DNA from: an uncultured Myxococcales bacterium
GTDB taxonomy: Bacteria > Myxococcota_A > UBA9042 > CAZBRS01
DNA length: 64,000 nucleotides
Direction of reading: 5' to 3'
Assembly: GCA_964494475.1 (NCBI GenBank)
Contig: CAZBRS010000013.1
Location: 11,057-75,056, forward strand
Under the pieces are notes generated by a model, which did no database searches, was not told where the DNA came from, and worked only from the letters and a program-made list of their open reading frames with translations. Numbering within the stretch: position 1 is the first letter of the stretch; each line of letters begins with the position of its first letter. Shown one piece after another: positions 18,473-22,709 of this stretch. Both the position numbers and the translations under genes were made by a program.

Positions 18473-19147
18473 ATGTGGGGGCTCTTCGAGGCCCACTACG
18501 TCGACGTGGCGCGCGACCGATTCGAGCGCGACCTCGCGGCCAAGTCGCACGTGATCCTGCTGGTCGACGGGGCCGACGGGAGCGTGCGTGGGTTCTCGAC
18601 GCTCCGCCTGCTCGAGCGCCGCGTGGACGGGCGAGCCGTCCAGGTGCTCTACTCGGGAGACACGGTGGTCGACCCGGCCTACTGGGGGCAGACCGCGCTG
18701 CAGCGGGCCTTCCTGCGCTTCGGCCTGGCCGCCGCGCTCCGACGGCCCTTCGTGCCCACCTACTGGTACCTCATCTCCAAAGGCTACAAGACCTACCTGC
18801 TGCTGGCGCGCAACTTCCCCGAGCACTGGCCGCGGCACGATCGACCCACGCCGGCCTGGCAGCAGGGGCTGCTCGAGGATCTGGGCGCCTTCATGTTCCC
18901 CGAGTCGTTCGTGCGCCACGGGGGCGTGCTCCGACACCCCGAGCCCTTGGGCCGGTTGCGCGAGGGGGTGGCGCCCCTCGCCGCCGACGCCCTGGCCCAC
19001 CCCGACGTGCGCTTCTTCGTCGAACGGAACCCCGGGCACGCCGAGGGTCACGAGCTCTGCTGCCTGGGCCGCATCGGCCTCGGCCTGTGGGCCTCGTACA
19101 CCGCCAAGCTCCTGCGTCGGGCGCTCCGGCACCGGAGGCCGACGTGA
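18473..19147 (+). CDS. GNAT-like N-acyltransferase-fold protein
   Basis: The ORF is open from 18377. The ATG at 18473 (MWGLFEAHY...) is the likely start. It has GNAT-like core strands (VILLVDGADGSVRGFSTL, YWGQTALQRAF). It overlaps the downstream GH3 gene by 4 nt (GTGA). Confidence 0.5.
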   Translation: MWGLFEAHYVDVARDRFERDLAAKSHVILLVDGADGSVRGFSTLRLLERRVDGRAVQVLYSGDTVVDPAYWGQTALQRAFLRFGLAAALRRPFVPTYWYLISKGYKTYLLLARNFPEHWPRHDRPTPAWQQGLLEDLGAFMFPESFVRHGGVLRHPEPLGRLREGVAPLAADALAHPDVRFFVERNPGHAEGHELCCLGRIGLGLWASYTAKLLRRALRHRRPT

Positions 19148-20730: not shown

Positions 20731-22709
20731 CCCGCGTGGTGCTCGCCCAGTTGCCGGTGCCCGAGCCCACGCCCCGCGAGAACACCGGGCTCGTGCCCCT
20801 GGGCGCCGCGTCGCTGGTGCTGCACGCGCGCCACGCCGGCGTGGGGGGCAATGTGGAGCTCGTCGTCCTGCCCGGGCCGACGCTCCGGCGCTTCGGCGAC
20901 GCGCGCCTGGCGGCCGCCATCGTGGCCGAACGGCCCGACGTGGTCGCGCTCACTGTCGACCTGTGGAACGTCGAGCGCACCCTGGCCCTGGCGCGGCGCC
21001 TGCGCGCCGAGCTGCCGGGGCTGAGGGTGTGGCTGGGCGGCCCCGAGGTGGCGGAGGACGCGCCCTTGGCGACGGCCGCCACCGACGTGTTCGACGTGGC
21101 GGTCGAAGGGGAGGGCGAGCTCCCGTTCCTGGCCCTGCTCCAGGGCGCCGAGGCGAGCACGCTCCCGACGGCCCGGGCCGTGGGCCGCGGCGTGCTGGTG
21201 CCCGAGCGGGCCCTCGGCGCCCTGACCGACCTCGCCACGCTGCACGACCCGTACGTGGAGGGCCTGGTCGCGCCCGAGGCCGATGGCGTGGCGCTGGCCG
21301 AGCTGTGGCGCGGCTGCCGTTATCACTGCACCTTCTGCCGCTACCACGCGGGGCGCCACGGCGCGGGGGCGAGCCGCCCCTACGCGCTGGTCGACCAGCT
21401 CTTCGGCTGGGCGCGGGAGCACGGCGTGCGCGAGCTGTACCTGCTGGACCCCAGCCTGGAGCAACGGCCCGATCTCGATGATTTCCTTGCGTCATTGGCT
21501 GCGTCAAATAGGTCGGGGCTGCCCCTCTTCGTCGAGCTGCGCGCCGAGGCCGTCGACGAGGCTCTGGCCGGCAGGTTGCGGCGGGCCGGCGTGCGGGGCG
21601 TCGAGGTGGGGCTGCAGACCACCCACAGGACGGCGTTGCGCCTGGCCGCGCGCACCTTCGACCCGGTGGCGTTCGTGAGGGGCGTGAAGGCCCTCGAGGC
21701 CGTCGGCATCCGGGCCCGGCTCGACGTGATGCTGGGCCTCGCGGGCGACTCCGAGGACGGCCTGCGCCAGACGCTCGCGTTCCTCCAGGAGCACGGCCTG
21801 GCCGAGCACCTGCAGCTCTTCCGCACCAAGGTGCTGCCGGGCACGGCCCTCCGCGCGCACGCGGGTCGGTTGGGCGTGCGGTACCAGGCCGAGCCGCCTT
21901 ACTCGGTGGTCGGCACGCCCACCTGGCCCGAGGCGCAGCTCGCGGGCGCGCTCGAGGTCGCCGCCGACGTGCTCGACCGCGATCTCGGCCGCGTCGAGGC
22001 GCCGGTCGTGCTCCGGCCCGCGTGGGGCCGCGAGGCCGCGGTCCGGATCGACTGGCCCGACGCCGACGCCTGCGTCGCCTACGCCTTCCGCCTCGACGCG
22101 CGCGAGGGCAGGGCGGCCCTGGCCGCCGAGCGCTTCGAGCGGGCCGGCAACGTGGTCTCGCTCTGGCTCGAGGGCGACGACCTGCTCCCGGCGCGGCGTG
22201 GCATCGTGGCCGCCCTCCGGCGTCTGCTCGCGGCCAACCCCTTCGCCACGGTGACGGTGGCGCTGGTCGGGCTGCCCGAGGGGCCCCTCGATCCGTTCGT
22301 CGACGTCGACGGCGTGCTCGACGAGGCGCGCCCCTCGCTCTACCTCGAGCGCCTGCACGAGACCCCGCGCCCCGAGCGCCGCCTGGTCGCCGTGCTCGAA
22401 CGGCCCTGGCTGCCGCAGATCGACCCCGGCTGGCTCGAGGCCCTCCGGGCCCACGCGAGCGTGCTCTGGATGACGCGCTGCGACGATCTGGAGGGCGCCG
22501 CCGCCGCCCTCCGTGAGGTCGAGGAGCTGGCCGACCGTGACGCGCTGCTGGCCGCTCCGCGCTCCTGGCCCGACGACCGTGACGCGCTCGACCGCGTCAT
22601 GGCCGACCTGGCGGCCGCGTGCCCCGCGCCCGAGCGCGTCACGTGGTCGCCGCTGGAGCTGCATTGGGCGTGGGTGCGGGCGGTCGAGCGGGGGGACGGG
22701 GGTTCGTAG
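20727..22709 (+). CDS. Cobalamin-binding (class B) radical SAM enzyme with extended C-terminal domain
   Basis: The ATG overlaps the GH3 stop (ATGA). The N-terminal B12-binding Rossmann-like domain includes DVVALTVDLW...VWLGGPEV. The radical SAM motif is CRYHCTFC (CxxxCxxC). A ~250-aa C-terminal extension follows. Confidence 0.8.
   Translation: MTRVVLAQLPVPEPTPRENTGLVPLGAASLVLHARHAGVGGNVELVVLPGPTLRRFGDARLAAAIVAERPDVVALTVDLWNVERTLALARRLRAELPGLRVWLGGPEVAEDAPLATAATDVFDVAVEGEGELPFLALLQGAEASTLPTARAVGRGVLVPERALGALTDLATLHDPYVEGLVAPEADGVALAELWRGCRYHCTFCRYHAGRHGAGASRPYALVDQLFGWAREHGVRELYLLDPSLEQRPDLDDFLASLAASNRSGLPLFVELRAEAVDEALAGRLRRAGVRGVEVGLQTTHRTALRLAARTFDPVAFVRGVKALEAVGIRARLDVMLGLAGDSEDGLRQTLAFLQEHGLAEHLQLFRTKVLPGTALRAHAGRLGVRYQAEPPYSVVGTPTWPEAQLAGALEVAADVLDRDLGRVEAPVVLRPAWGREAAVRIDWPDADACVAYAFRLDAREGRAALAAERFERAGNVVSLWLEGDDLLPARRGIVAALRRLLAANPFATVTVALVGLPEGPLDPFVDVDGVLDEARPSLYLERLHETPRPERRLVAVLERPWLPQIDPGWLEALRAHASVLWMTRCDDLEGAAAALREVEELADRDALLAAPRSWPDDRDALDRVMADLAAACPAPERVTWSPLELHWAWVRAVERGDGGS

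Follow-up and report, generated by a model that had tools for sequence, protein, structure and literature searches.

An overlapping GNAT-fold, GH3 and B12 radical SAM gene triad of an uncultured Myxococcales bacterium joins a widespread gene pair to a lineage-specific addition

GH3 enzymes have long been regarded as plant hormone conjugases. Plant references of the family are AtGH3.11/JAR1 and AtGH3.12 (PDB 4EPL, 4EPM; PMC12493201), and the first characterised bacterial GH3, OlsH, followed in 2025 and N-acylates an amino acid from a free fatty acid and ATP (PMC12493201). Together, OlsH and OlsI make up the GH3-dependent ornithine-lipid pathway of Singulisphaera acidiphila (PMC12493201; review PMC12971839), and the view expressed in the initial annotation of the locus analyzed here, that hardly any bacterial GH3 enzyme has been characterised, is therefore dated. 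Literature searches on GH3 (Gretchen Hagen) proteins in connection with radical SAM, GNAT, B12-binding or N-acyl amino acid retrieved only the OlsH paper and the review, and yielded no published description of a GNAT-GH3 cassette. OlsH/OlsI is the closest studied system to the cassette described below.

The DNA studied, hereafter the window, is a 64,000-nt stretch from an uncultured Myxococcales bacterium (contig CAZBRS010000013.1 of GCA_964494475.1, positions 11,057 to 75,056). The triad ORF1-GH3-rSAM1 and the surrounding cluster genes are listed in Table 1.

Table 1. Genes and intergenic region of the cluster, in window coordinates
Feature	Position	Strand	Description	Basis
unkA	17179..18321	-	Tandem-repeat GNAT acyltransferase (predicted), divergent from triad, 380 aa, probable TTG start 18321	Structure, homologues
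Divergent intergenic region	18322..18400	.	79 bp, between unkA and ORF1	Read from sequence
ORF1	18401..19147	+	Single GNAT fold (predicted) with ~75-residue insertion, triad gene 1, 248 aa	Predicted structure
GH3	19144..20730	+	GH3-family acyl-acid amido synthetase (predicted), 528 aa, GTG start inside ORF1 stop overlap	Pfam domains, motifs
rSAM1	20727..22709	+	B12-binding radical SAM enzyme, third triad gene, 660 aa, ATG start overlapping GH3 stop	Pfam
rSAM2	22746..24089	-	B12-binding radical SAM, conserved cassette pair member	Pfam
rSAM3	24152..25855	+	B12-binding radical SAM, accessory	Pfam
FNR-ferredoxin	25842..27032	-	FNR-type flavin reductase fused to plant-type 2Fe-2S ferredoxin	FAD_binding_6, NAD_binding_1, Fer2
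CrtI-like	27025..28560	-	CrtI/carotenoid-isomerase-like flavoenzyme, start approximate	Amino_oxidase, 88 bits
rSAM4	28614..29981	-	B12-binding radical SAM, second of conserved pair	Pfam

The assignment of the second triad gene to the GH3 family holds on profile search, as all three domains score above their cut-offs of 23.6 bits each (N-terminal PF03321, 135.5 bits; central GH3_M, PF23571, 53 bits; C-terminal GH3_C, PF23572, 47.2 bits) and the three nucleotide-binding motifs are intact. These motifs read S107-GGSTAPT-K115 (I), K306-GLLATE-G313 (II) and G366-LYRYHLP-D374 (III), with G109, K115, K306, G307, L308, T311, E312, G366, R369, Y370, L372 and D374 invariant across 30 homologues, and agree with the definitions given for OlsH and AtGH3.11 (SSGTSxGxxK; YxxSE; GLYRYRLGD; PMC12493201). 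The product, the sole GH3 of the genome, is a family member and, judging by its sequence, a predicted amide ligase.

Like OlsH, the window GH3 is a bacterial family member that carries all three nucleotide-binding motifs, and its operon likewise encodes a second acyl-transferring enzyme; the chemistry of OlsH is the chemistry we propose for it. It is, however, not an OlsH equivalog: the corresponding profile (NF052613) scores 49.5 bits against a cut-off of 620 and matches over residues 23-124 only, roughly the first 100. Moreover, the partner of OlsH is the alpha/beta-hydrolase O-acyltransferase OlsI, whereas the window GH3 is accompanied by two GNAT-fold proteins and, unlike OlsH, by B12 radical SAM genes or, elsewhere, a Rieske oxygenase; a Pfam search found no alpha/beta-hydrolase (OlsI-like) gene between 17179 and 30806. 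Plant GH3s belong to the same Pfam family, share the GH3/GH3_M/GH3_C layout and carry a nearly identical motif III (GLYRYxLxD), but are stand-alone, hormone-conjugating enzymes without operon partners and with low overall similarity to the window protein.

For the first triad gene, the left border initially placed at ATG 18473 is probably wrong. This start would cut off ~24 conserved residues, among them those of strand beta1 in the structural model; GTG 18401, in turn, is preceded by a GGAGG (18391-18395) and yields a protein of the same length as the 99%-identical database protein P0004, so that, as judged from sequence and model, ORF1 most likely begins at GTG 18401. A further candidate start is GTG 18377.

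No Pfam or NCBIfam family matched ORF1, an ORF1-family profile search against PDB sequences matched nothing, and every one of its more than 760 homologues is named 'hypothetical'. The AF2 model (pLDDT 91.5) gave 180 Foldseek matches in the PDB at E<=0.001; among the matches listed, almost all are GNATs. Structural superposition with VIA-align (residues 11-239) reached Z 12.7 for NatD, 11.5 for LasI (1ro5, 163 residues) and 11.2 for FeeM (2g0b, 162 residues). Of all GNAT matches, LasI and FeeM, an AHL synthase and an N-acyl amino acid synthase of GNAT fold, respectively, align over the greatest length, but at Z-scores level with those of ordinary acetyltransferases. ORF1 shows no sequence-level match to FeeM, LasI or OlsB-type N-acyltransferases, all of which lack its ~75-residue insertion. 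A clean Q/RxxGxG/A acyl-CoA motif is likewise missing from ORF1, the equivalent loop reading YWGQTA with the central Gly alone retained. The acyltransferase-fold call for this gene thus holds by structure only, its modelled fold being that of a GNAT.

Both 4-nt overlaps of the triad are present as claimed. At the ORF1/GH3 junction (CGAC GTGA GG; overlap 19144-19147), the GTG start of GH3 (19144-19146) overlaps the TGA stop of ORF1 (19145-19147), and at the GH3/rSAM1 junction (GCGTC ATGA CC; overlap 20727-20730) the ATG of rSAM1 (20727-20729) overlaps the GH3 stop (20728-20730). The frame with a third-position GC of >=0.9 changes precisely at both junctions, and Shine-Dalgarno-like sequences are found ahead of the GH3 start (GGAGG, 19133-19137) and the rSAM1 start (AGGGGG). 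Operon junctions with a 4-nt NTGA overlap are ordinary, and the window contains further ones at 12329-12332 and 29978-29981 as well as an 8-nt overlap at 27025-27032. Accordingly, the triad overlaps indicate a single operon and nothing unusual, and what they show is co-expression, not a conserved functional partnership. The divergent intergenic region is presumed to be a shared unkA/ORF1 promoter region; a scan of 17000-24300 for consensus promoters and terminators found no sigma-70 promoter in it and, at the operon borders, no signal exceeding that of shuffled sequence. Complex prediction for GH3 and ORF1, both entered as alignments (score 0.17, mark 0.32), spoke neither for nor against binding.

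To place the triad in a wider context, we surveyed related loci from several phyla (20 Myxococcota, five metagenome and 80 species-level loci; 95 unique loci), in whose counts related genomes are not independent samples. In 60 of the 80 species-level loci, GH3 and ORF1 are no more than 8 kb apart, and in 33 of the 74 loci with enough sequence GH3 lies immediately downstream of ORF1; of these 33, 14 offer an NTGA start, and in about two thirds the pair overlaps or is separated by <=5 nt. The ORF1 family is present in at least 558 species-level genomes of Myxococcota, Bdellovibrionota, Pseudomonadota, Acidobacteriota, Planctomycetota, Gemmatimonadota and other phyla, placing the window GH3 in a different and far more widespread gene set than that of OlsH. 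The one close relative, the metagenomic locus L071, has all 11 genes in the same order and retains both 4-nt overlaps, with proteins 67-96% identical to those of the window.

The conserved unit is the ORF1-then-GH3 pair and not the triad. Tight coupling, as initially proposed, is conserved across phyla for ORF1-GH3, but does not extend to GH3-rSAM1 as a general rule, this overlap being kept in L071 only. A conserved gene trio was not found beyond L071: the pair recurs, and rSAM1 accompanies it only there.

The pair is usually accompanied by a tandem-repeat GNAT and, in addition, either by a Rieske oxygenase or by two B12 radical SAM genes (in the window, rSAM2 and rSAM4). Genes of the rSAM2/rSAM4 type occur in 12 and a VanA-like Rieske oxygenase in 53 of the 95 unique loci, and the two never occur together (0/95). 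Most ORF1-GH3 loci are without any radical SAM gene. Cultured bacteria with the Rieske form include Pleionea sediminis S1-5-21 (L128) and Paraglaciecola sp. 25GB23A (L116). A general exclusion between the Rieske oxygenase and any B12 radical SAM gene is too broad, as one locus (L032) combines an rSAM3-type gene with a Rieske oxygenase; the exclusion is limited to the rSAM2/rSAM4-type pair. Overall, these loci define an undescribed cassette consisting of an ORF1-family gene followed by GH3, a nearby tandem GNAT and either the rSAM2/rSAM4-type pair or a Rieske oxygenase. All five genes of its radical SAM form (unkA, ORF1, GH3, rSAM2 and rSAM4) are present in the window. The ORF1 family carries no family name.

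The tandem GNAT of the window, unkA, adjoins ORF1 in many related loci. Its TTG start is preceded at 8 nt by GGAGGA, and the L071 orthologue is likewise a 380-aa ORF with a TTG start. Pfam gave no match for the window protein at E<0.01, whereas 15 of 21 homologues match Acetyltransf_1. The AF2 model (pLDDT 93.6), superposed with VIA-align over residues 2-372, indicates two GNAT domains in one chain, with Z 23.5 for the tandem GNAT MAB_4324 (7q3a), 22.6 for an N-myristoyltransferase (2p6e) and 20.3 for 2wpw; the likeness to the N-myristoyltransferase fold is tied with that to acetyltransferases. An unkA-family profile search against PDB sequences returned weak GNAT and N-myristoyltransferase matches only (E 0.03-0.1).

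The conserved radical SAM proteins rSAM2 and rSAM4 are 39% identical to each other. In comparison to L071, rSAM2 shows 90% identity (46-58% in other rSAM-type loci), and rSAM4, the most conserved gene of the cluster, 96% (66-70% in other Myxococcota and Oligoflexia loci). The best NCBIfam match of rSAM4 is BchE (102.7 bits, cut-off 481). Among the remaining cluster genes, rSAM3-type genes occur upstream of ORF1 in three loci (L032, L078, L111), and the FNR-ferredoxin fusion and the CrtI-like flavoenzyme (141.5 bits for TIGR02734, below the cut-off of 238) are found in L071 only among the related loci. A link to ladderanes, hopanoids or tetraethers was dropped, the matches to TIGR04072, HpnJ and HpnR being weak and far below cut-off.

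The class B radical SAM call for the third triad gene stands, as both Pfam domains exceed their cut-offs (B12-binding PF02310, 48.7 bits, cut-off 32.1; Radical_SAM PF04055, 58.9 bits, cut-off 29.5) and the cluster motif CRYHCTFC (C-RYH-C-TF-C) is of the CxxxCxxC type. All 19 matches of rSAM1 to curated NCBIfam subfamilies fall below cut-off, the best being TIGR03975 (68.5 vs 281.85 bits), and its identity to rSAM2 and rSAM3 is just 27-29%. The protein carries a C-terminal extension of ~250 aa, for which an Atlas search returned a weak match to DUF4080 (score 0.82).

rSAM1 lies directly after GH3 only in the window and, among the 95 related loci, in L071; no rSAM1-type gene was found in the remaining 94. 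Full-length orthologues (41-49% identity) are encoded in four other genomes (G034, G216, G274, G114) apart from any cassette gene; the neighbours of rSAM1 orthologues in other Myxococcota are unrelated (e.g. a VWA/YfbK protein, a lectin-like protein and a D-Ala-D-Ala-ligase-like ATP-grasp protein). No PF03321 match was found in four of the five genomes with rSAM1 orthologues (G034, G114, G216, G146; 93-97% complete). A comparison of the window with L071 shows rSAM1 to be less conserved than any other gene of the cluster (67% vs 90-96% for rSAM2/rSAM4). rSAM1 is a lineage-specific addition outside the conserved unit, and, as it has orthologues in genomes without a detectable GH3, the GH3 product is not necessarily its substrate. 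The orthologues encoded apart from the cassette, the lack of PF03321 matches and the low conservation would also fit a stand-alone enzyme with its own cellular substrate, which was inserted behind GH3 and merely shares its transcript. We consider this fairly unlikely, given that L071 keeps the 4-nt overlap with GH3 despite a change of the rSAM1 start from ATG to GTG, and that the cluster around rSAM1 contains three more B12 radical SAM genes.

Instead, we regard as probable a model in which the triad consists of two layers, namely the local copy of a widespread, unstudied amide cassette and a lineage-recruited rSAM1. For substrates, product class and order of steps we infer the following scheme. 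In the first layer (ORF1, GH3, the divergent unkA and the paralogous rSAM2/rSAM4 pair), GH3 would use ATP to activate a carboxylic acid as acyl-adenylate and then join it to an amine, as in OlsH and plant GH3s, and the two GNAT-fold proteins, ORF1 and unkA, may attach or pass on additional acyl groups, with a thioester as donor. This would lead to an amide-linked metabolite, probably fatty and lipo-amino-acid-like, whose unactivated carbons may be tailored by the rSAM2/rSAM4 pair here and by the Rieske oxygenase in the commoner cassette form. In the second layer, rSAM1 would be an accessory recruited in this lineage, as would rSAM3, the FNR-ferredoxin reductase and the CrtI-like flavoenzyme; it is co-translated with GH3 here and would most likely give the same product one more radical modification (e.g. 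C-methylation). The initial proposal of an amide-linked substrate that is then radical-modified is thereby retained in part: an amide-linked lipid that is later tailored is our best guess, but the conserved partners are rSAM2/rSAM4 and not rSAM1.

By analogy, the cassette product is probably lipid-like, because of the likeness to OlsH, the FA_hydroxylase type of neighbour (3/80 loci) and the resemblance of unkA to the N-myristoyltransferase fold; in the Rieske-type locus L090, a divergent fatty-acid-hydroxylase-family gene points to a lipid substrate. This neighbour also speaks against a polar small molecule derived from an aminoglycoside, a phosphonate or an amino acid, a product we consider unlikely. 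Such a molecule could be read from rSAM2 and rSAM3, which match best to the PhpK P-methyltransferase family (rSAM3, 141.7 bits, cut-off 600), with AprD4 also appearing, and from the top Foldseek matches of ORF1, which are aminoglycoside 2'-N-acetyltransferases; however, the radical SAM family scores are far below cut-off, the ORF1 fold scores are tied across all GNATs, and the cluster is without sugar, phosphonate (PEP mutase) or NRPS/PKS genes. Still more improbable is a RiPP pathway, in which the B12 radical SAM enzymes would C-methylate or crosslink a ribosomal peptide that is capped by GH3 and the GNATs. It could be read from TIGR03975, the best match of rSAM1 and a RiPP C-methyltransferase subfamily, and from the ApyD matches of rSAM2 and rSAM3; however, these matches lie far below cut-off (68.5 vs 281.85; 113 vs 750), no precursor-like small gene was found in the cluster, whose sole small ORF (29978-30244) is Arg-rich and probably spurious, and the majority of ORF1-GH3 loci contain no radical SAM gene.

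Within the two-layer model, it is conceivable, although we suggest it only tentatively, that the cassette leads to an undiscovered, widespread amide lipid whose key tailoring uses O2 where a Rieske oxygenase carries it out and proceeds without O2 where a BchE-like B12 radical SAM pair does so, which would be an aerobic/anaerobic replacement in one pathway, and that this lineage enlarged the anaerobic form by a further two B12 radical SAM enzymes together with a reductase of its own and a desaturase. In the case of BchE and AcsF, an O2-dependent enzyme is replaced by a B12 radical SAM enzyme. The cassette resembles this case in carrying one or the other tailoring module, never both, and in the best match of rSAM4 being BchE; it differs in that this match is far below cut-off and that the same step for both modules is hypothetical. 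If the product were a membrane or signalling lipid, it would represent a missing entry in bacterial lipid inventories. The alternation between the Rieske oxygenase and the B12 radical SAM pair would give direct access to the way in which the pathway deals with oxygen. On the best ORF1 tree, six changes between the Rieske and rSAM forms were counted, but well-supported branches force only one.

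The initial annotation had proposed a translationally coupled triad of a GNAT-fold gene (ORF1), a GH3 gene and a B12 radical SAM gene (rSAM1), and the triad operon is indeed real and intact. Both 4-nt overlaps could be read from the sequence as claimed (GTGA at 19144–19147 for ORF1/GH3, ATGA at 20727–20730 for GH3/rSAM1), and a purine-rich Shine-Dalgarno-like stretch precedes both internal starts. Since the minus-strand neighbours are divergent upstream and convergent downstream, the triad forms a self-contained three-gene operon. In the window (71% G+C), coding frames are sharply marked by third-codon-position GC, and 4-nt overlaps are commonplace, with further ones at 12329–12332 and 29978–29981; an 8-nt gene overlap is found at 27025–27032. 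The left border of the triad probably has to be moved, since both the alignment of the family and the modelled structure place conserved residues of ORF1, including strand beta1, upstream of the originally assigned ATG (18473). A GTG at 18401 is found five nucleotides downstream of a GGAGG, and translation from this codon yields 248 amino acids, the length of a 99%-identical database protein (P0004). The corrected starts for ORF1 and for unkA, the divergent tandem-repeat GNAT gene, are new here.

Features of the triad operon and its surroundings in the window
Feature	Position	Strand	Remarks
unkA, tandem-repeat GNAT	17179–18321	-	pLDDT 93.6; Z 23.5 to MAB_4324, 22.6 to N-myristoyltransferase
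Triad (ORF1, GH3, rSAM1)	~18400–22709	+	three genes
rSAM2, B12 radical SAM	22746–24089	-	
rSAM3, B12 radical SAM	24152–25855	+	
FNR-ferredoxin reductase	25842–27032	-	
CrtI-like flavoenzyme	about 27025–28560	-	
rSAM4, B12 radical SAM	28614–29981	-	
88-aa ORF	29978–30244	-	Arg/Pro/Gly-rich; no family match
599-aa protein	30811–32610	-	no known family

The GH3 assignment holds, with three of three Pfam GH3 domains above cut-off. The three nucleotide-binding motifs described for OlsH and the plant GH3 enzymes (PMC12493201) are recognisable as SGGSTAPTK, KGLLATEG and GLYRYHLPD, and their key residues are invariant across 30 homologues. This GH3 is the only one in the genome. The closest studied system is OlsH/OlsI, in which OlsH N-acylates ornithine from ATP and free fatty acid (PMC12493201; PMC12971839); the window GH3, however, does not qualify as an OlsH equivalog, scoring 49.5 bits where the cut-off is 620, and has no OlsI partner.

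For ORF1, the proposed acyltransferase fold is borne out by structure but not by sequence: no match was obtained in Pfam, NCBIfam or PDB sequences, and every one of its >760 homologues is annotated as hypothetical, whereas a confident AlphaFold model built from 32 homologues (pLDDT 91.5) depicts a GNAT fold with a ~75-residue insertion. Foldseek returned 180 matches at E≤0.001, almost all GNATs among the matches listed, and VIA-align Z-scores reached 12.7; FeeM and LasI were among the longest VIA-align alignments, but tied with plain acetyltransferases.

To place the triad in context, neighbourhoods were built from genome and metagenome loci, onto which the window proteins were mapped by tblastn. 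In a close metagenomic relative (L071; ORF1 72% identical), the whole gene order is kept (PBP2, PilZ, unkA, ORF1, GH3, rSAM1, rSAM2, rSAM3, FNR, CrtI, rSAM4), and both 4-nt overlaps are retained with start codon types swapped. The ORF1 family extends to at least 558 species genomes in Myxococcota, Bdellovibrionota, Pseudomonadota, Acidobacteriota, Planctomycetota, Gemmatimonadota and others. In 60 of 80 species-level loci of this family, GH3 is at most 8 kb away from ORF1, and in 33 of the 74 loci whose sequence extends far enough it directly follows ORF1. Of these 33, 14 offer an NTGA overlap, and most of the others overlap or are ≤5 nt apart. The usual companions are a tandem GNAT and one of two tailoring modules, and a literature search found no paper on such a GNAT–GH3–tandem GNAT cassette.

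Gene 3 is a B12 radical SAM enzyme as annotated; it combines a B12-binding domain with a radical SAM core containing CRYHCTFC and a C-terminal extension of ~250 residues. The triad as originally framed stands only in part: the ORF1–GH3 pair recurs, whereas among related loci an rSAM1-type gene is restricted to the window and L071. rSAM1 reached no curated subfamily and is the outlier among the radical SAMs of the cluster (27–29% identity to rSAM2 and rSAM3); of all cluster genes it has diverged most between window and L071 (67% identity, against 90% for rSAM2 and 96% for rSAM4). Full-length orthologues in other Myxococcota (41–49% identity) lie beside unrelated genes, and PF03321 was not matched in four of five genomes carrying one (93–97% complete). 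The radical SAM gene of the triad is not in the conserved core, a finding new here: the other two genes belong to a widespread orphan cassette, and the third is a lineage-specific accessory. That rSAM1 is a mere passenger on the transcript, not acting on the cassette product, would fit this distribution, but we consider it rather improbable for a gene whose overlap with GH3 is retained in L071. An orthologue of the 599-aa protein just past the cluster (48% identity) is found in L065 (G274:C185, 757–2898). It lies 2.4 kb away from that genome's rSAM1 orthologue, possibly a remnant of linkage between both genes.

Across 95 unique loci, rSAM2/rSAM4-type genes were found in 12 and a VanA-like Rieske oxygenase in 53, never both, a count likewise new here. 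An rSAM3-type gene is compatible with the Rieske form: in the hybrid locus L032 (G124:C3:62000-81999), it is located directly upstream of ORF1–GH3, and the Rieske oxygenase that comes after this pair shares 67% identity with the one in L090; the tandem GNAT of L032 is distant. On the ORF1 tree both forms are interleaved, with six changes on the best tree and one forced by well-supported branches, the form switches not being countable because branch support is too weak. On the same tree, ORF1 of L087 (Acidobacteriota) is nested inside Aquabacterium, and those of L104 (Acidobacteriota MAG) and L105 (Clostridia MAG) are nearly identical (branch lengths 0.06 and 0) despite the different phyla of their bins; either the binning is faulty or the gene was transferred very recently.

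By analogy with OlsH, GH3 would join an activated acid to an amine as an amide, further acyl groups would be supplied by both GNAT-fold proteins, ORF1 and unkA, and the product would be tailored, here by the B12 radical SAM pair and elsewhere by the Rieske oxygenase. The product is probably lipid-like. Pointers to this are the OlsH precedent, a divergent fatty-acid-hydroxylase-family gene at one Rieske-type locus and the likeness of the tandem GNAT to N-myristoyltransferase, though no single one is decisive.

The paralogues rSAM2 and rSAM4 share 39% identity. Compared with L071, L083, L086 and L097, rSAM4 is far better conserved than its neighbours, at 96% in L071 and 66–70% in Oligoflexia and other Myxococcota, loci in which ORF1 and GH3 are about 52–57% identical; rSAM4 may perform the key tailoring step. 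The 88-aa ORF, which shares 4 nt with the start of rSAM4, is probably spurious. Among related loci, the FNR reductase and CrtI-like genes are restricted to the window and L071. FNR-2Fe-2S reductases of this type normally serve Rieske or VanA-like oxygenases, and the NCBIfam matches (MmoC, BenC, PaaE) were all below cut-off. Despite this reductase, the rSAM-type cluster of the window contains no Rieske gene, and the reductase may instead deliver electrons to the radical SAM or cobalamin centres.
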